This document shows, piece by piece, positions 271-61,378 of a DNA stretch of 64,000 nt; the first letter of the stretch is position 1; each line of letters starts with the position of its first letter. The position numbers were made by a program, and so were the translations under genes. The stretch is from Chiloscyllium plagiosum (lineage: Eukaryota). The notes beneath the pieces are model-generated. The model saw nothing but the letters and a program-made list of their open reading frames with translations. It did no database searches and was not told the origin of the DNA. Location of the stretch: the NCBI RefSeq assembly GCF_004010195.1, contig NC_057719.1:14134364-14198363 (forward strand). The letters run 5' to 3'.

Positions 271-1029
271 AGTCGTTACGTTCTTCCTTATTTTTTTTAA
301 AGAAATATTGCACTATTTCTAGCTCCCCATAACTTCAAACACCAATTCATGCTTGACTAACTTTTAAAGCCTGTTCCTAACTTGTAAATGTATTTATATA
401 TTTACGTTCATTTATTCAGTATTTAATATTTAAAATGTAAAATGCATACAGTTCCCAATTTTGAAATCCACTATAATCACCCAGTTTTAGTCCCTTAATT
501 TAAATCCAAAATTAGTTTTCTTAAGTAGTCCTAACCAATCGTTGCTCAATTACAATACTATAGGTCGTGAAATAATCAGAGCTGCCTTAAAAGAATTTGT
601 CTATTCAAGTTTAAAAAAAAACTCCTAACGCATGAACAATTACCGAATCCAAGGCCACAGATATTAACCATAGAATTTTGTTTTTACGACAATCTAATTT
701 GAACTGAAACTTCAACTGTCCTCCATAAATCGCTTTTATGTAAAGATAAAAGAGATTAGTTAGAAACTGATAGTAAGGCAGTCATGATCTATAAAAAGAA
801 CAGGAGTTATTCTTTTTTCTTCATAATCTCGATAGAATCCTTAACCTTAAAAGAAATCATGTTAAGTTACCATAATAAAAATCAGATTTAAAACAGTCCT
901 GGAAGTCAAGCTCCAGGGAATAAAACGCAAACATTCAATTACCAACAAACAAATGTTCATTCAAACCAAATCACAAAGGCTTAAACTTTCTACCAGCTGT
1001 ACAGCTCTTTGCATTCTCTCTCTCTCTCA

Positions 1030-1100
1030 TTCAGTGACATATAAATTCAGATATTTACAAACCCAGTCTTCGTCCGACCTGTACTTTGGCCAGAAGACAT
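1030..1100 (-). mobile_element. gag: ERV gag matrix-region remnant, probably the same provirus as 1-270
   Basis: Minus-strand FWPKYRSDEDWVCKYLNLYV resembles the WPK.GSDEDWVC..LN.YV motif I recall from class I ERV Gag N-termini. It lies upstream of the capsid fragment on the same strand. Confidence 0.55.
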
Positions 1101-3376
1101 CGGGACGAAGAATGGATTCTGGCCTCACAAGGCTGTTTGACCCCGCTGCAGGTCATTGTTAGGCATATTCTTTCTTCATCAGTATCTACTCTCTCCATCT
1201 GGGCCTCTCCCGAGGCCATTCCGATCCTTATGACCTCTTTAATTGGGGTTTGTTCCTGTGTCTCTGTAAAAGTGGGAAACAGATGTTTATACCTACTGTT
1301 TTTACAGGCGTATCTAGCTTAACTTCATCCCCTCACAACATCTCATCTATTTGCCCATAATATCTACCATTGTTTTGCAATCACGTTTCATGCTGGCATA
1401 CAATTTTAGCTAATACAAAAACAATTATATATTTCCTCCACATCGTTTCCATTCTTGTTGACTCAGCTCTTGGCTAAAACAATTACACACTGGTGCGAGT
1501 TCATTTACTTTTATATAATCAATTAGAATTGCAGAATTGCAGAATTGCAGAAGTAACATTAATTTACCTATATCCCACAGACTTCTGATGCGTGTTTACA
1601 GAGGATGCAGTCAGCATGCTGGACGTCCCCAAGGAAACGCAACACTGAACCTGTATGAGGAAGTCATTATGCTTGTTTTGTTCATGTAGTGAATTCCTAT
1701 TTCACCATTACCACGGTGGGATGCAAACCTATGTCTCCAAAACATTAGTTTGGGTTAATAGTCCCATTACCAATATGCCACCTTTTGTTAAATTTCTAAC
1801 ATGCTGCACAACTCTCTCCTAGCTATCCCTCATCAAATACCCTGTGCACGAGTCCTTTGCATTCTATCCCTTGGCAAATGCAAAGTCCTCAGTGATGCAT
1901 TTCTATGTTTGTATATACGCTTAATGCAGGTAGTCTTTGCAACATTTGGCTTAAGAATGCAGATCTGTGTTAACATAAGTAACTACTACTTGGTATGTGT
2001 AACCTTTCACCAATGGGAAGAGTGCTTATGGTATCCCCACAAATAATTAAACTTGTACTGTGTTGACTTATTATTGTTTCATATTATTGTGGGTATTGCT
2101 GATAAGGCCAGCGTATGTTGACCACCCCAATGACCCTTGAAATGAGGAGTGGTCAGCCATTTCAGAGAACAATTAAGTGTCAACTATATTGATGTCATTA
2201 AGGTGAAATTACATGAAGGTCAGACCTGTCTCACAGCCCTGTCCTAAAATAACATCTGAGAAGACATGCCCACATGCTTGAGATTGAAGGACTCGGAAAA
2301 GGCAAAAACGAAGTCCTGGAGAAACTCAGCAGGTCTGGCAGCATCTTTGCAGAGAGGAACAGATTTAATGTTTTGAGTCCACTATGGCCTGCAGGTCAGT
2401 CAACTTGTTCCCTATAACTGTAATGCCTTTATGGATCACTATATAATCATAGGATTTCCTGGAAGAATTGCAACAACAAGGAAATCCAGACTATTTAGGA
2501 GTTGAAAAGAAAAACACTGGAATGTTTCTCTTCACATCCTTCCGCAATTTAAACCCACCTGGGCAAGTATGAAAACTCAGGCTTACTGAGAGAGCAGATA
2601 CACATGGTTCAATGGTAATGATTATGGCTGGTCTATCAAAGATTGTCAATTTCCAGTTGCATGCATATACATCCTGACCAGCAGAATAAGGTGTGCAAGA
2701 TGATCACAGACTGCAGGAGATGGTTACAGAAGCGATGGGTTTACATAGAACTCAAATTCTGAAATACACTTAATTTTTTTTACTTTGCTGCTTATTTGTA
2801 TAAAGTGCTGAATCTGTTAATTTTCTCTTTCAAATCGTGACCAGTTGACCTCCTGGAGGCAGATAATAATTATTTTCTAAATACATTCTAAAAATACTTT
2901 TTTTTTGCTACGGGTGACTGCTTATTTGAAGAAAGTTCTGACTCTGTTGACTTTCTCTTTTGAACTATCCCATTTGACCTCTGAGTGTTAGATAGAAGTT
3001 AGTTTCTAAATCTCTGCTTAAAGCATTGATTTTGTAAGAATTTGTCTAAGCTCACAAAGTAGCATTGGTTAGAGGACCCAATGATACTTGCCAAGCACAG
3101 AATGTTGTGCTGCACACTGTGGACTTTGCAAGGAAAAAAGTAATTTAATTGCAAGGAAGTCATTTTGTTTGGACATCCGGGATATATCATTCACAGGCAG
3201 TCAAAGGTAAAAAAAAATGTTATTCCCCATTAAGTGTTTATGTGCAACTGCAGTTAACTGTGTCAACGACTTGTGAAAGGAGCTTCATGAATTTATTGTT
3301 GGAATGGTTCTTGATGGAATAATGATTGGAAACATTACGGCTGAATGACACAAGATGATAATAGAGGAGAAAGCCC

Positions 3377-7992: not shown

Positions 7993-8837
7993 CTAAGAAT
8001 GTGTGGCAATGACCGAGTGTATCCAATGGAGGTAGCTGGACACGCGGGTGTACACCCCGTAGCGTCCTGGCCGTGCGCATCCAGTCCCCCAGGAGACAAT
8101 ACCCATCAGGTACCAGGCTCCCGAAGGCTGGTGAGGGACTAGGAAGCCCCCACCGGTGTCCCCACCACATGCATCCCTCCCGCCCTCTGGCAAACCAGCG
8201 CAGAACATGTTGTTGGTGACAGGCGGGCGCAAACCCCCAATTCGTGCCTCCTGGAAAGCCTGCTGGCAGTGCTGCTGTCTGACCAAAGGCAGTGTAACGT
8301 AGCGTAGCCGGTCGCGAAGGAAGAACCCCTCCTCGATTCCCCAGCCGGCCACAAAGCCCACAGTCCCTGGTTGGAGGAGGTCACCCTCCTTGTATCCCCC
8401 GGCCCCGCGTAGGGCAGGCAAACAGGCAGGCATAGCCCCCTCCTCCACTCCCTCGCTCCCGTTCCTCCTCAGCTTGATCAGGGCAATGTCATTGTCGAAA
8501 TCGTGCAGCTCCTCCACGAACCCTGGGTGCACCACAATCTTCTCGATCTCACGGCTCTTCCCTGCCAGGAGTGCCCGCAGGTTGGTGCTTCTCCCTGCCT
8601 GGCATGTCCGGATCCGGGTGACGTTGAGTTGGTGGGACAGCTCCGTCCGGGGGCCCCCTTTCGGGTAGAAGACATGGGCGGCTGTCAGCACCCAGCCCCC
8701 GCCGATCAGGGTGCCCCCAGCCCTCCCCCGACCGCTGGCCACCACCAGCACGTGCCACGGGAAGCTCCCCTCCTCTGCCAGCCTACCACCCAGGATCCGC
8801 TGCACCGTTGTCGCTGGGTTTGAAGGCCGCCCACAAA
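7993..8837 (-). CDS. Last coding exon: intron-less trypsin-fold (S1A) protease domain of the C1r/C1s/MASP/haptoglobin family, with catalytic Ser replaced by Thr
   Basis: Acceptor ctcgactttcacag, then phase-1 TT TGT GGG CGG = (V)CGRPSNPATTVQR|ILGG..GSFPW..WVLTAAHVFYPK..FDNDIALIKL..PACLP..GFVAGWG..LRYVTLPLV..NMFCAG..DACGGDTGG..GIVSWG.GC..YGVYTRV..YLHWI. The histidine-loop cysteines (C42/C58) are absent and the domain is in one exon, both hallmarks of C1r/C1s/MASP2/MASP3/Hp. Confidence 0.93.
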
Positions 8838-9959
8838 CTGTGAAAGTCGAGGAGAAGCAGAACGAGAGTCAGCGGCTGCGGTATGGAAAGATAGAAAGAA
8901 TTAGGGAGAGGGGGAATAAAAGCAGAGCTAGGGTGGTAGGTGTCTGGAATGTGTTGGCAGCAGAGGTTAATACAGGCATGGTGGATTCATTTAAGATGCA
9001 TCTGGACAGGTGCATGAGTAGGTGGGGAGCAGAGGGATACAAATGCTTAGGAATTGGGTGACAGGTTTAGACAGTAGATTTGGATCGGCTCAGGCTTGGA
9101 GGGCCATAAGGCCTGTTCCTGGGCTGTAAAGTTTCTTTGTTCTTTGTTATTTTCATCAGGTGTCATTACACAGGACTTGAGCACCTTTTCCCTATGTTTT
9201 CCCCCACCCTCATAGACCTTGTTATCACATGGGCTGCTACCACACACCACTCATTCTCAACCTCTAACAGTCCCCGCTGGCATAGTTGCCTTCCAAGCAG
9301 TTAACCTGAGTTCAATTCCTGACCATCACAAGGTTCCCATTTTCTTGTGGTGCTGAACTTTTTAACTTATTTCTTTATTTTTCTATTTCTCTAACTAAGA
9401 TTTTATAGCTAGATACATTGTACCTAAGATGGCACTTGTGGGGTGACATTGTACACTTTTCACTGTACTCTTGTACCCTGTGCAAGATAATAAAATGTAA
9501 ATCCAGAATCTAGTGGCTATTCTTTCCCCTAGACACACCGTTATCCACTCCTTTTTCTGTCCAACTGTTATTCTCTCTCTTTGAACTCTATCTCTACCTG
9601 TTGTTTACCCTCTTCCCTGCCACCCCACATCTCGTCTTCTGCATAAAACCATCCTTTTCCTTGCTGTCATCAGTTCCGAGACAGAGTCACTGGATCTGAA
9701 ACGTTTACTCTGATTTCTCTCCATACATGCTGCCAGACCTGCTGAGATTTTCCAGCAATTTCTGTTATTGTTTCAGATTTCTAACATCTGTCGTTCTTTC
9801 AGTTTTGTCCTTAACATCCTTGCTTGGATGAGAGCTCAGTCCAGTAGGAATCTTAGTTCGGCACAAAATTTATTTTGACATGAATTGTTGACTTGGCTTG
9901 ATTGACATCTGTAAGCTGTTAACCTAAGTTACATCTGAACCCGTGACTAGGAGGAATGT

Positions 9960-19902: not shown

Positions 19903-20125
19903 CTTTTACTCCAGAGGTTCCATTTCTTGTGTTATCAGTGATTCCTTTGCACACTGTTTCTTTGGCACTCTGCTCTGTGACCCAGGGTTTCGTGGTAGTC
20001 TGGAGTTCCTTGGTTGGTGGGCCCTCTGAGCTGCTGGTTGGTGACTGGGATATAGAATGGCCACAAAGCAAAGCAAGCACCAAAACCAAGAGCCTAGAAG
20101 GGATAGCACAGAGTGGTGACTGCAT
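19903..20125 (-). CDS. Predicted first coding exon of the protease-like gene: signal peptide plus Ser/Thr/Pro-rich stalk
   Basis: ATG at 20125-20123 gives MQSPLCAIPSRLLVLVLALLCGHSIS-QSPTSSSEGPPTKELQTTTKPWVTEQSAKETVCKGITDNTRNGTSGVK. It ends at the donor AAG|GTAATT in phase 1, matching the phase-1 acceptor at 8837 (G+TT = Val of VCGRP). A pyrimidine-rich acceptor ctcccatcaccctgcaccccaacctag ends at 20143. Confidence 0.72.
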
Positions 20126-21037
20126 ACAATTCACAGAGACAGCTAGGTTGGGGTGCAGGGTGATGGGAGCTTCAGGGCTTCCAGCTGACCTCAGGACCAT
20201 GCACCCCAGTTGCTAAGGCCATTGCAGGATTCTCACTTGATAGTTTGCATACTACAGCATGGAAATTAAACCCAAATCCCTCTCAGTTAGCATTTATGTA
20301 TGTTAAACCATTTGTTCCTCAGGGAGAATGCTATTATCACTCAGATGCTTGGGGATTGGGCTTGGCCTTTGGATCTCAGTTGGAAACAAAAGCCAATGTT
20401 TGAGACCCAAGGAGGTGTTTTGGCCGCACGTTTCACCTCTGGGATGAATTAAGGCTGAAGCCAGGAGGAGATCAGCCTTTTATTGGGACCCATGGACAAT
20501 TGGAAGTGAGAGGGAGGGTCCAGTCAGCCATTAAAGCTCAGCCTGTAGCTTCGGGTGCACAAAGAATGCCCTAGGTGCCAGCACAAATCAGGGTTACACA
20601 TCCCCAACACATCAGCGGCTTGCTAGATCAGTCAGACCATGTGTAGGCACCTCCTACTCTGATCTATTGCAATGTAAATGTTTATCTGTCATCTATTTAT
20701 CTGACTGCAATGTTTGTCCTTTTAACGTTATTTCTTATTTTCCAACTTATGCTATAAATCACTGTTTGGTAATGTGACTATTATTTTCTTTATTTCTCTA
20801 TTTTGTATCTAAGATTTGAATCTCAGTACCTTTGTACCTAAGATGGCGCTGTGAGGGGAGACATTTTAAACTGTACTCCTGAACTTCTGTACTTGAGCAC
20901 ACTTGACAATAAACCTAAGTCCAATCCTAATTCTAATTGCAAGTGTCCAACATACCTCATGGTCCTTCAGCAAGAGCAGATCTGCTTTCTGTCGTAGAAT
21001 GAGCAACACACACTAACACAAATCAAACTAGAACAGC

Positions 21038-27703: not shown

Positions 27704-29354
27704 TCAGTATATGCCTACTCCAGCAATATGTTGGCAGGTAATTCCCAATTTGACATTTCTAGCCTCAGGATGAAATAAAACTACGTGTGAACGCTGTTGC
27801 TTTAAGATGAGCAAAGGACATACATAAGAAAAGGCCACAATGAGCTCCTGAGCTAGGTTAGAGTTCCCAGGGTTGGCCGTGGACTTTTGAGCCAAGAACT
27901 TCCATGCTGAGGGGAAATAAAATGAACTGTTTCTCAACTGAGTATGTGAAAGCCATAAATTGCCACATTATAAACTGCAAAACAAACATAAGAATAACAA
28001 ACATGAAAAAGAAAGTCTGAATACTGTGGAGTTACAGCCAGTTTTATTGCCAAGGTTGAAAGTGACAAATTTGTGAGTGTTGGAGTGGTAGACTTTCTTG
28101 CCAACAGCCCCATCTTTGACCAGAGACAGTGTCTATAGGCAATGTCAAAACCACATCAAGTGACTAGCCAATGGAGTAATTGATATAATAATTGTAACAA
28201 GAAGACAGACATAACAGGTTCAATCAGGACCCAGCTAATGCCAGGAAGTGACGATTTTTTCAAGGAAACAATATGCCATCTTATGGGAAAATCTGGTACT
28301 GCAGATGCACTGAGCTGCAAGAAATGTGTCCATTATCAACTGAGCAAGCATAACATTGGAAACTCCAGTGGATATCCAGTATTTTCCCCAGGAAACACTG
28401 ATCCCCACTCCACCTCTGGTATTTTCTTTAATTTGCTAACCTATACTTGATTTGCCTCATTAATCAATTTTTTTTTAAAAAAGAGTCTTGCATATCGGTA
28501 CAGAAATCAGATTAAAACTACTTTTATCAGGTTAAAATAACTTTTACACAATGCAAATTGTGTAAAAGTTTGCTTGAACACCTTTGTGTCAAGATCCCAG
28601 ACATGGAGAATGTGTGGGAGCAGTATTTCACTGTGGCTGGAATACTCCTGGGGAAACAGCCAGTGTTTTTTAGCAGCTGCTTTTTATTTTGCAAATAATG
28701 CAGACTTGAAAATGTTCAGCATTTGTAGGTTGCATGACAACTGATAAATAAAAATCATATATCAACCAATACCAGTTCCCAAGTTATCAGACAGATGGCA
28801 AAGATGCTGAATGAGAAGGAATGATTAAAGTAGATGATTCCCTGCTCAAAAAGGAGTAAGCTTTTGTTTTGCACTTGGTGTCTGTTTGCGCAAAGGACCA
28901 ATAAAGTCAAATCTCTGTGCAAATCTGATTATTAGGCAATGTGATGTAAATAGTTTAAAGATCCATTTAATATACCTGTAGAATTATGCATAGTGGTAAT
29001 GTAAAAACAATGTCTAAATATTGTAGTTTTGTGAATAAAATGGAATAACCAATTGCAACAAGATGCAGTTCCTAACAATGAATATACTAAGGAACAATTA
29101 AGATTCTCATGCAAGTCATTATATGAGGTTTCAACTGTGTGGATAATTAAGGAGTAATTTTTCTTCTTTCTGAAAAAGGTAACATGCTGCGAAAGATTTT
29201 TCCTTTGCATACATCAGGAAAGATGATATAACTTGTGCTCTGGAGGTAGAGGTCCTTGTGTATATTTGAGGCTGAGACAAATTCTTGATCAGTTGAGGAA
29301 CCAAGAGTTACAGGGAAGGGGCAGGAAATTCGGAGTCAGGAATGTCAAATCAAC

Positions 29355-30750
29355 CAGGAATGGCAAATGTAATTCCTCTCTTCAAGAAAGGAAATAGGGA
29401 AATCCCTGGCAATTACAGACCAGTAAGTCTCACGTCTGTCGTCTGCAAGGTTAGAGAAAGGATTTTGAGGCATAGGATTTATGACCATCTGGAAGAGCAT
29501 GGCTTGATTAAATGCAGTCAACACGGCTTTGTGAGGGGCAGGTCATGCCTCACAAACCTTATCGAGTTCTTTGAGGATGTGACTAGAAACGTTGATGAGG
29601 GTCGAGCTGTGGATGTGGTGTATATGGACTTCAGCAAGGCATTTGATAAGGTTCCCCATGGTAGGCTCATTCAGAAGGTCAGGTGGAATGGGATACAGGG
29701 GATCTCAGCTGTCTGGATACAGAATTGGCTGGCCAACAGAAGACAGCGAGTGGTAGTAGAAGGAAAATATTCTGCCTGGAAGTCAGTGGCGAGTGGTGTT
29801 CCACAGGGCTCTGTCCTTGGGCTTCTACTGTTTGTAATTTTTATTAATGACTTGGATGAGGGGATTGAAGGATGGGCCAGCAAGTTTGCAGACGATACAA
29901 AGGTTGGCTGTTGTAGGCTGCAGCGGGACATTGACAGGATGCAGAGATGGGCTGAGAGTTGGCAGATGGAGTTCAACCTGGATAAATGTGAGGTGATGCA
30001 TTTTGGAAGGTCGAATTTGAAAGCTGAGTACAGGATTAAGGATAGGATTCTTGGAAGTGTAGATGAACAGAGGGATCTTGGGGTGCAGGTACATAGATCC
30101 CTTAAAATGGCCACCCAAGTAGACAGGGTTGTTAAGAAAGCATATGGTGTTTTGGCTTTCATTAACAGGGGGATTGAGTTTAAGAGTCATGAGATCTTGT
30201 TGCAGCTCTATAAAGCTTTGGTTAGACCGCACTTGGAATACTGCGTCCAGTTCTGGTTGCCCTATTATAAGAAAGATGTGGATGCTTTGGAGAGGGTTCA
30301 GAGGAGGTTTACCAGGATGCTGCCTGGACTGGAGGGCTTATCTTATGAAGAGAGGTTGACTGAGCTCGGACCTTTTGCATTGGAGAAAAGGAGGAGGAGA
30401 GGGGACCTAATTGAGGTATACAAGATAATGAGAGGCATAGATAGTCTCTGGCTATCGACTCTATTTCTCAGGGCAGAAATGGCTAACAGGAGGGATCATA
30501 GTTTTAAGCTGTTTGGAGGAAAGTATAGAGGGGATGTCAGAGGCGGGTTCTTTACACAGAGTTGAGAGAGCATGGAATGCGTTGCCAGCAGCAGTTGTGG
30601 AAGCAAGGTCATTGGGGACATTTAAGAGACTGCTGAACATGCATATGATTACAGAAATTTGAGGGTGCATACATGAGGATCAATGGTCGGCACAACATTG
30701 TGGGCTGAAGGGACTGTTCTGTGCTGTACTGTTCTATGTTCTATGTTCTA
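29355..30750 (+). mobile_element. Relatively young 5'-truncated CR1-clade LINE with an open RT frame
   Basis: 407-aa ORF 29342..30565: NYRPVSLTS, QHGFVRGRSCLTNL, VYMDFSKAFDKV, GVPQGSVLG, FADDTK, HLEYCVQFW; tail (TGTTCTA)n at about 30730-30750. Confidence 0.95.
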
Positions 30751-37628: not shown

Positions 37629-37789
37629 TTACTGATGTTCTGTTTCTATTTCTGGTATACAGTCATTAGGATACTGGGAAAGCACAAAGCCTGGTAAACA
37701 GATGCACTTATATGATCCTTCTGTGTTCTCACAGCTTGCATTCCGGCAGAGTGGTATGCTATCACTCAGATCCTCACATTCATTAATAT
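37629..37789 (-). CDS. LTBP2: LTBP2-like, final coding exon (last calcium-binding EGF domain) with stop codon
   Basis: Acceptor ttgcatttcag, then (D)INECEDLSDSIPLCRNASCENTEGSYKCICLPGFVLSQYPNDCIPEIETEHQ-TAA (37631-37629). Confidence 0.9.
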
Positions 37790-37916
37790 CTGAAATGCAA
37801 GAATCACAACAGAGTCATTTCAATTCATATGGGTAGCAGTAGGTCATAGAAACGTCTCCAGCTTGCTCTGTTATTCAATTAGTTCATAGCTGATCATCTA
37901 CCTCAACTTCACCTCA

Positions 37917-44090: not shown

Positions 44091-45757
44091 GTTTAATATT
44101 ATTTGTGAAAAGTTGTAACTTGTGCAAACTTTTATTCTTGCCTCCAATTCTAAAAAAAAACTTTGCGTCTTATCCTGTTTTCATTCTTTCACTGGCCATA
44201 TGATTTGCAATCAGAAATCAGGGCAGGGTAATCCCACCTTGATGATTTAGATTCAGACTTCTTTCTGAAGTTTTCACCACACTACTGTCAGGTTAGAATA
44301 ATGATAACTTTTCAACCTTTGTCCAAAAACAGGAAACCATCCTCCGTGGAGTGGGGAGAGTGAGGACTGCAGATGCTGGAGGTCAGAGTCAAAAACTGTG
44401 GTGCTGGAAAAACACAGCAGGTCAGGCAGCATCCTAGGAGCTGGAGAGTTGACGTTTTGGGCATACGCCCTTCATCGGGGGGAGAGAGAGAGAGAGACAG
44501 AGAGACAGAGAGACAGACAGACAGACACAGTGTGTGTGAGGACGTTGCCAAATTGGAGGGTTGGATATTGGATGAGGTGGGGAGGGAGGGGAGATTTGGA
44601 AACTAGTGAAGTTGATATTGATGCCGTGTGGTTGAACGGTCCCAAGGCAGAGGATGAGGCATTCTTCCTCCAGCAACAGAGTTAACGTTTTGGGTTCAGT
44701 GACCCTTTTTCAGAACTTCTGAACTTAAGTCTGCTTTCTCTCCACAGATGCTGCCAGACCTGTGTTTGTTTTGGACTTCCAGCACCCGCAGTTCTTTGTC
44801 TTTCTTTAACCAGAGGTTACAAGCTGGTTAAACAGTGTTCAAGGTTTTAACAGCTTGAGTTTTATTCCAAATCACACCTCGTAAAACATCAACAGACTGC
44901 TTACTTGTTCCCCATATACCTAATCATGTTCTCATTCAATAATCCCCTAATTACCATTAAATATCAATTGTTTCCAAGTTCCATTTGGTTTTTAGGTATC
45001 CCTACTGGATGAAAATAGTTCTCAATTCATACATTGACCATGAAAACAAAACCTTGAGCTGACATCAACTCTCTCAATCTTATCAACCCAATATAGTCAT
45101 CAACCAACAGTGAATTTCTTTTTAAGAATTAATTTGTTGCAATATGCAGTAAGATGAATCCTTTGGTCCTTTGACCTAGGGATAACGCATTAAAGTCTAT
45201 TCCATGTAGATAACTAGATTTATTTCCATTGGTTTGAGATTCTGGAATGAGCAGGGGACATAGTCTTAGAATATGGCCAGACAATTCTGGACAGGTATTA
45301 TGAAGTACTTCTCCATACACAGGCTAGTAGAGGTTTGGAACTGACTTCCACAAATGGTGATGGATGCTGGGTCACTTGTTATTTTTAAATCTGAGGTAGA
45401 GTTTCTTTTGTTAAACAAAAGGATATGGGCCAAAGATGGGTATATGGAGTTAGACCATAGATCAGCTATGATCTGACTGAATGGTGGAACAGGCTCCAGG
45501 GTCTGAATGGCCTACTTCTGTTCCTATATTCCTAAAACAGCATCTACCCCATAGGGAAGTATCAGCAGTGATACTAATGAGATGTCTAGTCCTTTATCGG
45601 GGAATTGATAACTCAGAAAGCAGAACTGATAAGAATGACAGTGCAATCTGCATCTCTCACTCCAAATAAGCCTGAATATTTAGTGGTGAAGGGTTGAGCT
45701 GTTAAGAAAGAGGAGGAAGGATGGACCAAAGATCACAGAAAGCAAAAGGTCACTCAC

Positions 45758-45907
45758 CTACACAAGTCATTTTTGTCATGTCGAGCTCAAAACCATCAAA
45801 ACAATCACAGGTGTATCCTTCCTGCACTCGAACACATCGCCCATTTTCACAGCCATTCAGAATCCCACACTCCTCTGCTTGTAAGCCTTCAAAACTACTG
45901 GAACGAT
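45758..45907 (-). CDS. LTBP2: LTBP2-like exon (penultimate EGF domain)
   Basis: ttttctcag|(D)[49 protein letters not shown]|gtgagt; 150 nt, phase 1-1. [23 protein letters not shown] is the LTBP2-type sequence. Confidence 0.95.
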
Positions 45908-46279
45908 CTGAGAAAATCAAATCAAATATTGGGATATACCACACAACTAAAGCAGGTTCAGGTGTTTCTGGTTCGACAATAGTACTTTCCATTGATCTAC
46001 CTCAGACCACAGGCTGTAATTTTCGATGGAACTGGAACATGGATGCGTCCATGTATACCATCAATGATCCATGCCAGTTCTGTGAAGGTTGCATCCTGTT
46101 AAAAGATCAAAGTGCCCTCACAATCCTGCCAAGGAAAACTGGTGATACAATTGGCAAACAATGAGGACCCTGTGATGTGGTCACTGCACTGACAAAATGA
46201 ATGAGGTTGTCAATTCTCCAGTTCATGGTTTGAAGGAAAACAATGTTAAAAGCTGTCATACATTTTTTCTATGTTCAAC

Positions 46280-51860: not shown

Positions 51861-53040
51861 CAAACTGACCCCAATGGGACAGAGTAAGACAGACAGAAAG
51901 AGAATAGAGGAGCTTTAGCTTCACCTGCGTGATAGTAACTGGATGTTTGGGCAGTTACAATCAATGTCATTTCTAATCCACTGGCAAGTTGACTGGTCCA
52001 AATTTTAACTTGTTCAACTGGGCAGCTGGTTTGATGGTAATTCTTGAGGGTAGAAGGAATCCTCTTTGCATTTGAATATTGAATTCTGATGATGTCATTG
52101 CAATTAGATTGTAAGGTTAATTTCTGAGTTGGATCAGCAAGTTGCTGTTGTTTCCAGCTCAGTGTAAAGGAAGCAGAGAAACTGGCCCAATAAAGGCCCC
52201 AAAATGTTAACTTAGGGGTTGGTTGGTCAGCCATAATCCTATAGAATAATGGAGCAGGCTTGAAGGGCCAAATGGCTTGCACCTACTCCAACTTTCTACG
52301 TTTTAAAACTGTTCTTGTGGTACCAGGAGTACTCCAATCAGCCATAATGGGTTTTCCCTGCTGCTAACCCTCTTCCCTTCTAATGCAATAACCTCCAAGA
52401 CAACTGCAGAAATTGAACCTGTCACCTACAGAACTGGCACTTGATTTTCAGGTACTCAACGTTGATGTTTTAGCCCAGATGGAGACCACTCTCAAAGTCA
52501 ACTTCCCTCTAATTGTGCCCTACCACTGATATGCGTTTTCCCACAATACTGGGAGGTCAGGCCTTCAGTATTACCTACATATTGTCCTGGCAATTTGAAA
52601 TCAGCGATGAAGAATGGGATTCATTATGCTAACAGAGCTGCTCACATTTTCAGCACAAATTTGGCTTATTCAAATTGTCAAGAGAGCTGTCAAGAAAACT
52701 GTTAACATAAATGCCAAAGGGACTTGTTAAATAAAGCTGTTGAGCATTACAAACCCTTTCTTGTAACAAATGGAAATGTTTCAGTGGTGTCACAAGAAAA
52801 GCAGTGCTTGTTATTTGATTCTGTTGACATAAGCCTGCAAGTTATAAATGCAGGATTAGTGCTATATGACTGATTTCACAACATGCCATTTCACTATTTG
52901 ATTGGCTGTCTAAGCGGTTATAAACGCTTTGGGACAACAAATTCCAATTTTTTTTAATAGAGTCACAGAGCCATATAGCACAGAAAAGTGTCTATTTGAT
53001 ATTTAGATTCAATACAGGTATTAAGTAATTAACATCTTAC

Positions 53041-53211
53041 CTGATGTTCTGGAGGGGCAGAAAGCACATTGTAGGCCCCAGGCCTCTCCATACAAGCAGC
53101 AGCATTCAGTGTATGTTGTTGATCTGGTCCTCAAAGGCTTACTACAGATGTCATCCTCAGTCACTGCTTGCCAGCATATATCCAGATATGTATCTACCTC
53201 TTCAGAGTTAA
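53041..53211 (-). CDS. LTBP2: LTBP2-like exon (last 8-Cys/TB domain)
   Basis: gttcactag|(V)[56 protein letters not shown]|gtaag; 171 nt, phase 1-1. TYTECCC..GEAW is a TB-domain signature. Confidence 0.95.
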
Positions 53212-53307
53212 CTAGTGAACAGAATTAATATCATAGGGTTATCTTCAAAACAGATAAAAAATGTTTATCAGGTTACTGTTGTACACACAAAACATATCTC
53301 TGAAGTT

Positions 53308-58000: not shown

Positions 58001-58091
58001 CCCTTTGAAGAGGGCAATGGATCCGCTTAAATTTCTTGCTAATATAGAATTATTAATATATCGTAGAAATAGCTTCAAAACTTATATTTAC

Positions 58092-58232
58092 CTCCTAATT
58101 CTGTGCCATTTATACATTTTTTACGGGTTACATCCAGTGTAAGTGGTGGGCTGCAGAAACAGTTAAAAGATCCTGGTGTATTGACACACTCTCCATTCAC
58201 ACATGTATTTTCATCTTGACACTCATCAATAT
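58092..58232 (-). CDS. LTBP2: LTBP2-like exon (calcium-binding EGF domain)
   Basis: ttctttag|(D)[46 protein letters not shown]|gtaaat; 141 nt, phase 1-1. [10 protein letters not shown] matches LTBP2. Confidence 0.95.
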
Positions 58233-59023
58233 CTAAAGAAATAATGACAAAAAAAAGGGGGACAAATATGTTATTCCTTTCGATTAATACATGAACATGT
58301 ACCCACCTCTGCAAGTAATTGAGCAACTTCCCCGAGTAATAATGTTGATTGAAAATCATTGATACAATTATCTTGCGGTGCAATGGTAGTGTTGCTATCT
58401 CTGGACTAGGAGACCAGTGTTTCAAGTCCCACCTACTCCAGAGGTAGGTAATAACATCCCTGAACAGACTGAACATAAAATATGCATTTAATTGTTTTAT
58501 CATTTTTGCTTTACATTGTTAACATGAAAGTATTAAATGCAAATGCGTTATGCAAGTAATGTGTGCACATTCTTCAAAATGTAGGTGTCACATTTCTATA
58601 ATTTTACCTCCAAAACAGATAGAAAACATTCTATTGAAATTGAATATTCTCAAAATTGGAAGGCCAACTTAGTGCGTATATATTCCCATCAGTAAGCAAC
58701 ACTCAGAGATTGTACTGCAGCTGCAGAACCTGTGATTTTGAACTCCTATAATGAGTGAATGAAGATATATGTTGTACACCCATCAGTGAACACCAAGAGC
58801 ACACAGTGATTGTTGTTTCCCAGTAGGTTGGAGGAATCAATACTAATATTTAGCAGACGATTTCTATAAGGGAGCTTGTTTATAATCAGAACTCTTGGAT
58901 GTTGAATAGGCTTAGAAAGGAGAAACCAGTCATTTACTACTTGCTTAATGGGCAAGCATAGTTTTAAATAAACATTCATTGTAGACATACATTATTTTCA
59001 TCCTGCTAATAGCTCAAACTTAC

Positions 59024-59152
59024 CAACACATTCCAGTCGTACATTGTTATAGTAATATCCAGTGTCACAGTAACAGGCGTAGTCACCTATATTATTTACA
59101 CAATGCCCATTCTTGCAAATTTCTGATCCAAACATTGTACATTCATCCGCAT
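59024..59152 (-). CDS. LTBP2: LTBP2-like exon (calcium-binding EGF domain)
   Basis: actgtag|(D)ADECTMFGSEICKNGHCVNNIGDYACYCDTGYYYNNVRLECV|gtaagt; 129 nt, phase 1-1. Confidence 0.95.
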
Positions 59153-59659
59153 CTACAGTTGGGAAGTGAAACACATTTATTTCAGAGATATTTGATAAAC
59201 AGTTCCACTATTTTGCTGAAGTGTTACAATGTCAGCTGATGGTAAGAGACAATTTAGCTCCCAAAATGAAACTTGACTCAATAGATCATAAGTTTAATTT
59301 TTGCAGATGGGTATTGTGAGTCACTGGTTGCATTCAAATGAGATTGTCAATGTTCTTTAAGAAAATAACACCAGTTTATTGCACAAAAGGAAAAAAAAAA
59401 TGGAAGTTTAAACATGTGATATGTTTTAGAAAGATCTCACCCATCATCAGCAAAACAACAATTCAACCTGCTTCCCAGGTTTTCATGTATTCGATATCAG
59501 GGAAGCATCACTTGTATCTTAACTCTGCAAATTCTTAGAGAACTGACTTTTTCAGTTTTGTTGGCCAAGAGGCATATTTCCAGATGCTTAAACCTCTTTT
59601 CAGTCCTTACAACTTGAAAACTTCAACACAGACCCTCATAGTTTGGAAATTTCACAACT

Positions 59660-61378
59660 GGACCTGATCAGGTGTACCCAAGAACTCTGTGGGAAGCAAG
59701 AGAAGTGATTGCTGGGCCTCTTACTGAGATATTTGTATCATCGATAGTCACAGGTGAGGTGCCGGAAGACTGGAGGTTGACTAACATGGTGCCACTGTTT
59801 AAGAAAGATGGTAAGGACAAGCCAGGGAACTATAGACCAGTGAGCCTGACGTCGGTGGCGGGCAAGTTGTTGGAGGGAATCCTGAGGGATAGGATGTACA
59901 TGTATTTGGAAAGGCAAAGACTGATTAGGGATAGTCAACATAGCTTTGTGCGTGGGAAATCATGTCTCACAAACTTGATTGATTTTTTTGAAGAAGTAAC
60001 AAAGAGGATTGATGAGGTCAGAGGGGTAGATGTGATCTATATGGACTTCAATAAGGAGTTTGACAAGGTTCCCCAAGGGAGACTAGTTAACAAGGTTAGG
60101 TCTCATGGAATACAGGGAGAACTAGCCACTTGGATACAGAATCCAAAGATGTGCAGATTAGGTGGATTGGCCTTGCTAAATTGGCCATACTGTTAGGTGC
60201 ATTAGTCAGAAGGAAATGGGTCTGGCTGAGTGACTCTTTGGAGGGTCGTTGTGAACTGATTGGGCAAATGGCCTGTTTCCATACTGTAGGTAATCTAAGC
60301 ATCTAAAGAACTGGCTCACAGGTAGAAGATAGAGGGTGGTGGTGGAGGGTTGTTTTTCAGCTGGAGGCCTATGACCAGTGGAGTGCCACAAGGATTGGTG
60401 CTGGGTCCATTGCTTTTCATCATTTATATAAATGATTTGGATGTGACCATAAGAGTCATCGTTAGTAAATTTGCAGATGACACCAAATGTGGAGGTGTAG
60501 TGGACAGCAAAGAAGGTTACTTCAGATTACAATAGGATCTTGATCAGATGGGCCAAATGGGGCTGAGAAGTGACAGATGGAGTTTAATTTAGATAAATGT
60601 GAGGTGCTGCATTTTGGGAAAGCAAATCTTAGCAGGACTTATATACTTCATGGTAAGGTCCTAGGGAGTGTTGCTGAACAAAGAGACCTTGGAATGCAGG
60701 TTCATAGTTCCTTGAAAGTGAAGTCGCAATTAGATAGGATAGTGATGAAGGTGTTAGGTATGCTTTCCTTTATTGATCAGAGTATTGAGTACAAGAATTG
60801 CCTGTACAGGACATTGGTTAGGCCACTGTTGGAATATTGCGTGCAATTCTGGTCTCCTTCCTATTGGAAAGATGTTGTGAAACTTGAAAGGGTTCAGAAA
60901 AGATTTACAAGGATGTTGCCAGGGTTGAAGTATTTGAACTATAGGGTGAGGTTGAATAGGCTGTGGCTGTTTTCCCTGGAGCATCGAAGGCTGAGGGGTG
61001 ACCTTATGGAGGTTTATAAAATCATGAGGAGCATTGGTAGGATAAATAGGCAAAGTCTTTTCCCTGGGCTGGGGGAGTCCGGAACTAGACGGCAGAGTTT
61101 AGGATGAGAGGGGAAAGATATAAAAGCGACCTAAGGGCAACTTAGGTCTACGCAGAGGGTGGTACGTGTATGGAATGGGCTGCCAGAGGAAGTGGTGGAG
61201 GCTGGTACAATTGCAGCATTTAAAAGGCATCTAGATGGGTATACGAATAGGAAAGGTTTGGAGGGATATGGGTCAGGTGCTGGCAGGTAGGACTAGATTG
61301 GGTTGGGATATCTGGTTGGCATGGGTGAGTTGGACCTAAGGGCTTGTTTCCGTGCTGTACATCTCTGTGACTCTATAA
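59660..61378 (+). mobile_element. CR1-clade LINE (RT region to 3' tail), interrupted by a SINE fragment at about 60140-60300
   Basis: ORFs 59672..60196, 60350..60535 and 60577..61107 give NYRPVSLTS, GVPQG.VLGP, FADDTK and LEYCVQFWSP. Confidence 0.93.

Follow-up and report, generated by a model that had tools for sequence, protein, structure and literature searches.

A shark gene of the C1r/haptoglobin group with a conserved threonine at the catalytic serine position and no N-terminal complement modules

C1r, C1s, MASP-2, MASP-3 and haptoglobin make up the AGY-type group of complement proteases, in which the protease domain is encoded by a single exon, the Cys42–Cys58 disulfide is missing and the catalytic serine is specified by an AGY codon. 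We analyzed a gene on the minus strand of a 64,000-nucleotide stretch of the shark Chiloscyllium plagiosum (RefSeq assembly GCF_004010195.1, contig NC_057719.1, positions 14,134,364 to 14,198,363 of the forward strand; hereafter the window), which encodes a protease domain with threonine at the nucleophile position, residue 195 (hereafter the Thr gene). It has the single-exon domain and lacks the Cys42–Cys58 disulfide, as the AGY group does, and its serine codon is replaced by ACC. An earlier note on this sequence had stated that the family uses AGY for its active serine, and this was borne out in the same genome, where all six GDSGG paralogue loci checked (L002, L003, L006, L007, L008 and L010) use AGC or AGT (AGC and AGT in L002 and L003); ACC is therefore one transversion from the usual codon of the family. 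Judged by its sequence, the gene encodes a member of the C1r/haptoglobin group that is devoid of N-terminal modules and combines a conserved Thr195 with an otherwise complete catalytic apparatus, its catalysis being putative. The product belongs to the peptidase S1 fold family, yet it is not a canonical serine protease.

Human C1r (PDB codes: 1md8 and 1gpz) is the best solved relative of this protein by sequence (E 4e-47), is among its top structural matches and falls into the same tree group. Both have a single-exon protease domain without Cys42–Cys58, the sequence YPKG after His57, Tyr225, Asp189 and an Arg–Ile activation site. Unlike C1r, the Thr lineage has threonine for Ser195, Gly or Ala for Gln192 and a longer loop after residue 60, and it lacks the CUB1-EGF-CUB2-CCP1-CCP2 modules, so that the Thr protein cannot sit in the C1 complex as C1r does. 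With haptoglobin (nurse shark H9LEQ0; human, PDB code: 4x0l) it shares secretion, an S1 domain without the canonical serine, membership of the C1r/haptoglobin subgroup and a predicted architecture in which cleavage at Arg–Ile/Val leaves a light chain disulfide-linked to the S1 domain. Unlike the Thr lineage, shark haptoglobin has two CCP domains (PF00084 in the shark haptoglobins P0394 and P0396), Asn189, His or Trp at position 195 and SHD or SYD replacing SWG, and it evolves about twice as fast; it keeps His57 and Asp102. Human haptoglobin has lost His57 as well, and our alignment, which showed Lys57 and Ala195, agrees with the statement in the earlier note that this protein is inactive through loss of both His and Ser. 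In mammals, C1r-LP (C1RL) is a truncated C1r paralogue that lacks most of the N-terminal modules and keeps one CUB domain and the serine nucleophile, and it has been reported to process pro-haptoglobin at an Arg–Ile bond. For a C1r-group protease that has shed its modules and may be located close to haptoglobin, C1r-LP is a plausible functional analogue; the trees described below contain no C1RL sequence.

The same substitution has been engineered into the same fold in trypsin and thrombin (Baird 2006; Pelc 2015; PDB code: 4rkj). In 2006, Baird et al. reportedly rescued trypsin S195T by combining C42A with C58A or C58V, and the resulting variants are said to be 10^2- to 10^4-fold less active than the wild type and more than 10^6-fold more active than S195T alone. 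In PMC8695361, the poor activity of S195T enzymes is ascribed to the methyl group together with the 42–58 disulfide, for which a clash with Thr195 of S195T trypsin is proposed; removal of the disulfide made S195T trypsin marginally better and partly corrected the deficit of S195T thrombin, and Thr195 of thrombin can rotate and bind PPACK (D-Phe-Pro-Arg chloromethyl ketone) covalently. The shark protein has Ala42 and Val58 naturally; unlike these laboratory mutants of greatly reduced activity, it represents a natural lineage that is also changed at positions 192 and 198. TSP50 (PRSS50), compared here by description, shares the S1 type and the Thr nucleophile position. The earlier note had cited it as a rare S1 protease reported to act with Thr, and its abstract (PMC3344824) indeed calls it a threonine enzyme and describes the T310A mutant as protease-dead. 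TSP50 is unlike the Thr lineage in being mammalian, expressed in testis and tumors and placed outside the complement subgroup. The combination found in TSP50-type enzymes, Thr195 with His57 and Asp102, was present in the window sequence and in its orthologues.

The ACC codon and all the other coordinates given in the earlier note were confirmed on the minus strand (Table 1), as was its reading that His57, Asp102, Asp189, Gly193/Asp194, SWG and the R/ILGG activation site are intact in a frame without lesion. The open frame at 7996-8868 (translation P0001), which is free of stops and frameshifts, spans the linker Cys to the stop in a single exon, and P0001 matched the Pfam Trypsin profile (PF00089) with 164.5 bits (cut-off 20.6) and an E value of 4e-48 over profile positions 1–220 of 220. 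The trypsin-type S1 pocket is complete, with Asp189, Ala190, Gly216 and Gly226. The strongest mechanistic point was absent from the earlier note, namely the lack of a Cys42–Cys58 disulfide. Position 42 is Ala in 9/9 covered rows and position 58 is V, A, I or T in the orthologues (Ala42/Val58 in the window); with Ala at 42 and no Cys at 58, the disulfide cannot form. Furthermore, all 12 lineage rows carry A, G or V at position 192, residues that none of the 42 other rows of the family has there (the most frequent being Gln, in 19), and position 198 is Gly in 12/12 lineage rows versus 2/42 other family rows. Small residues at both positions are unique to the Thr lineage among the rows compared.

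GDTGG was found in all 13 orthologous genes, which come from 12 shark species (the window included) and from the MetaClust entry P0129. Besides C. plagiosum, the species are the orectolobiforms Chiloscyllium punctatum, Stegostoma tigrinum and Rhincodon typus; Cetorhinus maximus, Carcharodon carcharias, Heterodontus francisci, Mustelus asterias, Scyliorhinus canicula and S. torazame; and Pristiophorus japonicus and Heptranchias perlo. The orders covered are Orectolobiformes, Lamniformes, Carcharhiniformes, Heterodontiformes, Pristiophoriformes and Hexanchiformes. P0129 is 51% identical and branches outside all shark members. Wherever they were covered, R15, I16, A42, H57, D102, C122, C168, C182, D189, C191, G193, D194, G196, G197, S214, W215, G216, C220, Y225 and G226 were invariant. 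Among eight full-length rows, 131 of the 266 ungapped columns were invariant, and sequences of the lineage differ from one another by 3–49%. The lineage is monophyletic, with a support of 99 in the Shimodaira–Hasegawa-like approximate likelihood ratio test (SH-aLRT), and its branching follows the accepted relationships of sharks, with squalomorphs outside, then Heterodontus, then orectolobiforms versus lamniforms plus carcharhiniforms. The path length from C. plagiosum to Heterodontus is 0.40 in the Thr lineage versus 0.89 in shark haptoglobin, and that between the two Chiloscyllium species is 0.031 versus 0.097; for the same species pairs, the rate of evolution of the Thr lineage is roughly half that of shark haptoglobin. 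The conservation points to a functional gene maintained by purifying selection. Of the 658 S1-domain matches in 396 collected proteins that cover position 195, Ser occurs in 558 and Thr in 29, and 15 of these 29 rows belong to this shark lineage (two of them, P0001 and P0390, represent one gene).

Threonine at position 195 also occurs in C1r-like paralogues of teleosts. In Astyanax mexicanus (P0140, P0251 and P0252), a protein of CUB-CCP-protease organization keeps His57, Asp102 and Asp189, and in Chanos chanos (P0089) Thr195 is accompanied by Asn at position 57. These teleost Thr195 forms group with an Ala195 form from catfish and the Ser195 C1r of Ictalurus. The suggestion in the earlier note that the threonine evolved independently holds only in part, given the occurrence of Thr195 in the teleost paralogues (Astyanax P0140; Chanos P0089).

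In the C. plagiosum genome, only two of the six complement-type single-exon protease domains that we found keep the serine. The single-exon domain L005 (G000:C41:19704003-19704758, plus strand), whose best solved relative is human C1s (1e-61), reads GDAGG (GCT, Ala195) and retains His57 and Asp102; if L005 is shark C1s, the catalytic serine of C1s is missing. L002 and L004 (G000:C48:4249387-4250124 and 4275742-4276485, plus strand) are tandem protease exons of the C1s group, 26 kb apart, one of which reads GDSGG; the other, which has Thr in place of His57 (LTSATC) and contains Cys42 and Cys58, reads GDGGG. The GDSGG/GDGGG pairing recurs in the ray models of Mobula (P0036) and Hypanus (P0063).

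In our judgment, the chances are about even that the protein acts, after activation, as a slow Arg/Lys-specific protease with Thr195 as its nucleophile. By homology with C1r and MASP, the Cys of the VCGRP linker would pair with Cys122 (PACLP), and a trypsin-like activator would cut the Arg15–Ile16 bond to yield a two-chain, disulfide-linked molecule. The new N-terminus at Ile16 would pair with Asp194, upon which the S1 pocket and the oxyanion hole would form, and Thr195, assisted by His57 and Asp102, would attack Arg/Lys bonds as a nucleophile of low turnover. Threonine may be made tolerable by the missing Cys42–Cys58 disulfide, a trait shared with the rest of the gene family, and by the unusually small residues at 192 and at 198. 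An AlphaFold2 model built on a 29-sequence alignment had a mean predicted local distance difference test score (pLDDT) of 85.6 and a predicted template modeling score (pTM) of 0.89, with low confidence confined to the activation peptide (residues 15–17) and one surface loop (130–132). The top Foldseek hits of this model were the catalytic fragments of MASP-2 (9d3y) and C1r (1md8), with a probability of 1.00 and a query-normalized TM-score of 0.77, and the thrombin S195T structure 4rkj was also among the hits. A fuller version of this reading, which we put forward tentatively and somewhat below even chances, is that cartilaginous fishes keep a true threonine-nucleophile enzyme of the trypsin fold, with a re-tuned loop, for slow Arg-specific processing in the blood or the secretory pathway, and have retained it since a time before squalomorphs and galeomorphs separated, possibly even before the P0129 lineage branched off. 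If so, the enzyme would be a candidate convertase of neighboring pro-haptoglobin, which is one possibility and is what has been said of mammalian C1r-LP, and slow acylation might let it largely escape serpins.

Several observations weigh against catalysis. The activity of S195T trypsin and thrombin is greatly compromised (PMC8695361), which sets a low prior for a working Thr195. Loss of Ser195 with His57, Asp102 and Asp189 kept is common in the family (Ala195 in P0131; GDAGG on C41; P0064), so that catalysis cannot be concluded from the presence of the triad partners. The C1r-like Thr195 forms of teleosts sit beside Ala195 and Asn57 forms (Astyanax, Silurus and Chanos), a pattern that looks like threonine as a step in inactivation. 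Moreover, haptoglobin, which is no enzyme, also retains the Arg–Ile/Val cleavage site.

These points lend strength to the alternative of a non-catalytic pseudo-protease, likened to haptoglobin or to the serine-protease homologues of arthropods, in which Thr195 is inactivating and the S1 pocket and cleft bind a partner protein, a ligand containing Arg/Lys or, as a decoy, an inhibitor such as a serpin. We regard it as a serious contender, a little short of an even chance. Position 195 is other than Ser in 100 of the 658 S1-domain matches among the collected relatives, and the complement subgroup is especially rich in dead forms, to which the genome of C. plagiosum itself contributes GDGGG (the second C48 exon, where Thr stands in for His57), GDAGG (C41) and GDHGA (haptoglobin). 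S195T mutants are very poor enzymes (PMC8695361), decayed forms adjoin Thr195 in the teleost C1r-like genes, and a binder that used the cleft would likewise conserve Asp189, SWG, Gly193 and the activation switch. However, it is not evident why a pure binder should need His57, Asp102 and Ser214 throughout the lineage, or Thr in 13/13 genes and never Ala, Gly or Asn; shark haptoglobin, by contrast, is variable at position 195, with His or Trp, and no longer has Asp189, Trp215 or Gly216. The simplest reading of the small, lineage-specific residues at 192 and 198 is that they tune the surroundings of residue 195. The earlier note had set a threonine-nucleophile protease against a pseudo-protease that still binds Arg/Lys ligands, and this pair of hypotheses is the right one, partly supported by the evidence gathered here.

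The placement of the Thr gene was examined in quick maximum-likelihood trees of 55 and 54 protease domains with SH-aLRT support. The Thr lineage, the C1r of bony vertebrates and shark haptoglobin formed one group (SH-aLRT 94 and 95), and C1s-type, MASP-2-type and MASP-1/3-type domains fell outside it. The branching order within the group was not fixed in these trees, which showed a polytomy, and a tree uniting the Thr lineage with shark haptoglobin was not rejected by the approximately unbiased test (p-AU 0.50), being as likely as the free tree. The exhaustive representative search returned the best 150 of 41,029 hits, mainly multi-domain proteins, with a floor of 170 bits that lies above the range expected for haptoglobin; the haptoglobins in the trees are therefore those of sharks only, with none from bony vertebrates. 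No haptoglobin was found among the cluster names of 10 candidate teleost proteins. The nearest non-shark proteins among the matches listed were the C1r of sturgeon, bichir, gar and coelacanth (42–51% identity), and no bony-vertebrate orthologue was found in the protein searches, of which the exhaustive one comprised those best 150 of 41,029 hits. On these alignments and trees, we assign the Thr gene to the C1r/haptoglobin subgroup of the complement-type S1 proteases, within which it represents a lineage of cartilaginous fishes that has been stripped of the N-terminal CUB, EGF and CCP modules. With it, the C1r/haptoglobin group of these fishes gains a third lineage.

Several orthologues are named after haptoglobin, and the earlier note had implied a link to this protein; that the Thr gene is simply shark haptoglobin, as RefSeq naming would have it, nevertheless seems to us very improbable. 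Four RefSeq records (Cetorhinus, Carcharodon, S. canicula and Stegostoma) bear the names 'haptoglobin-like' or 'haptoglobin-related protein-like', the tree joining the Thr lineage to haptoglobin survives testing, as described above, and a search of the genome with nurse-shark haptoglobin gave the Thr gene as second-best match (37%), behind haptoglobin itself. That haptoglobin is a distinct exon in the same genome (C426:241-999), 68% identical (67% by BLASTP) to nurse-shark haptoglobin H9LEQ0 (P0394). Its best solved relatives are human haptoglobins (3e-37 versus 1e-32 for C1r), whereas C1r (4e-47) and MASP-2 (4e-46) come ahead of haptoglobin (2e-41) for the Thr gene. The two CCP domains, Asn189 and His or Trp195 of shark haptoglobin likewise set it apart from the Thr gene, which has no CCP exon. 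The haptoglobin of C. plagiosum, which reads GDHGA at the nucleophile motif, is encoded by a protease exon that stands alone on a 1-kb contig of 70% GC (L009, G000:C426:1-1000); a search of this assembly for the haptoglobin CCP exons gave nothing at E <= 1e-6, and the haptoglobin locus is largely missing from it. The implied link is thus wrong as orthology, since the same genome has a separate haptoglobin with a degraded active site. The comparison refutes orthology of the Thr gene and haptoglobin, and the Thr gene could be a sister paralogue of haptoglobin.

The two genes are probably linked in Heterodontus, which lends some weight to a haptoglobin connection: a longest contig of 358,103 bp is given for haptoglobin P0396 and for the Thr gene P0125 alike. 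In Heptranchias perlo, the RefSeq model P0002 (572 aa; 40-kb contig) fuses the C-terminal two thirds of a GDSGG domain upstream of a complete Thr gene; it merges two neighboring genes, the signal peptide of the Thr gene being present. The best match of this upstream GDSGG domain in the C. plagiosum genome was the Thr gene itself (43%). The Heterodontus contig of 358,103 bp and the P0002 fusion hint at an old gene cluster. Among the families that neighbor human HP, DIM1-family members (TXNL4A/B) map to C4, C12 and C22 and DHO_dh to C17 and C11, with none on C10, and thus lie on other chromosomes than the Thr gene; these map positions give no support to a mammalian HP neighborhood and constitute weak evidence against it.

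Least probable of all, and given next to no weight here, is that the threonine reflects an error of assembly or sequencing, a private variant or a pseudogene of recent origin: the identical RefSeq protein P0390 appears to derive from the same assembly and is therefore no independent confirmation of ACC, but Thr in an intact frame in the assemblies of 11 other species and in P0129, conservation rather than decay across divergent orthologues and a gene tree that agrees with the species tree exclude all three, which the earlier note had named as what would overturn its reading.

The coding sequence consists of three exons (Table 1) that join, with canonical splice sites, into 1041 nt encoding a 346-aa product, which is identical to P0390, the C. 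plagiosum RefSeq model "complement C1r subcomponent-like". With P0122, the closest full-length relative, as the tblastn query, residues 2–65 matched 20095-19904 (97% identity) and residues 61–346 matched 8853-7996 (96%). The motif ATGAGGTRNG at the end of exon 1 has a single minus-strand match in the window (20960-20951), about 860 nt upstream of exon 2. The secreted product begins with a hydrophobic signal peptide, which is followed by a linker of about 50 aa that can be glycosylated at its one N-glycosylation sequon and then by the protease domain. No CUB, EGF or CCP exons of the Thr gene were found in the window by tblastn and domain scans; full-length C1r and MASP proteins used as tblastn queries matched just the protease exon, and the orthologues carry PF00089 alone. 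Two extra cysteines, Cys50 in the exon 2 linker and Cys144 in exon 3 (RTCQAG, in the loop after residue 60), co-occur in orectolobiform rows: the window, C. punctatum and Rhincodon have both, and the remaining rows of alignment A1 have neither. This distribution suggests an additional lineage-specific disulfide or a dimerization site.

Table 1. Coordinates of the Thr gene, its active-site elements and a neighboring gene in the window (a slash marks an exon boundary or the activation bond)
Feature	Position	Strand	Details
Exon 1 coding end, ATG AG (Met and two bases of Arg2)	20956..20960	-	Donor GTATGT; context gaccATGAG/gtatgt
Exon 2, remaining signal peptide, Ser/Thr/Pro-rich linker with NGT sequon, Cys50	19903..20093	-	tblastn
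Exon 2 acceptor AG	20095-20094	-	
Exon 2 donor GT	19902-19901	-	
Exon 3, VCGRP linker Cys, activation site, whole S1 protease domain, TAG stop	7993..8837	-	Stop at 7995-7993
Exon 3 acceptor, ...tttcacag	8845-8838	-	
Arg15-Ile16 zymogen activation bond	8794..8799	-	CGG/ATC, in QRILGG; 8/8 covering rows and 4/4 added sequences
His57	8674..8676	-	CAT, in WVLTAAHV; next codon (position 58) is Val, not Cys; His57 in every covering orthologue
Asp102	8488..8490	-	GAC, in NDIAL; 10/10 aligned rows
Asp189-Ala190-Cys191-Gly192-Gly193, S1 pocket base and oxyanion-hole glycine	8161..8175	-	Asp189 is GAT at 8175-8173, in RDAC; Asp189 and Gly193 in 10/10 aligned rows
Asp194	8160-8158	-	GAC
Thr195, nucleophile position	8155..8157	-	ACC, motif GGDTGGG; Thr in 13/13 orthologous genes
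Ser214-Trp215-Gly216 substrate-binding strand	8086..8094	-	TCC TGG GGG; 10/10 aligned rows
Calcium-binding EGF (EGF_CA) exons, LTBP/fibrillin-like gene	37632-37814, 45753-46001, 58078-58518, 59001-59207	-	
TB domain exon, LTBP/fibrillin-like gene	53024-53224	-	

The window contains zero N letters by script count. Of 24 sequencing runs listed, 20 contain part of the exon and 15 of these, which come from 7 studies, contain at least half of its words; no RNA run containing it was found among the 24. Upstream of the Thr gene and on the same (minus) strand lie exons of an LTBP/fibrillin-like gene (37632-59207). RVT_1 open frames at 29297-30562 (plus strand, E 6e-31) and 59642-60193 (plus strand, E 4e-10) are presumably remains of retroelements of the long interspersed nuclear element (LINE) type. 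A weak match to the GOLD domain of TMEM181 at 866-1159 (plus strand, E 0.0027, under the curated cut-off) may be an exon of a downstream neighbor or a chance match.

Automatic annotation has given the orthologues of the Thr gene at least five different names, and none of the database names applied to it (C1r-like, MASP-2-like, haptoglobin-like and 'vitamin K-dependent protein C') describes it properly; the present assignment corrects them. No description of the Thr lineage was found in the open literature searched; Redmond 2018, the key paper on shark haptoglobin, lies outside that search and may mention it.

Enzymologists have wondered about the constant use of serine, to the exclusion of threonine, in the trypsin fold, and this shark lineage provides a natural test of that question, combining a long-conserved Thr195 with all the other catalytic elements, an absent disulfide and small residues at 192 and 198. 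By its sequence features, the lineage may be one of the rare cases in nature of a serine protease that works with threonine. If active, the protein would show a route by which the trypsin fold can be adapted to threonine; if inactive, it would show which parts of an S1 active site persist for binding alone.

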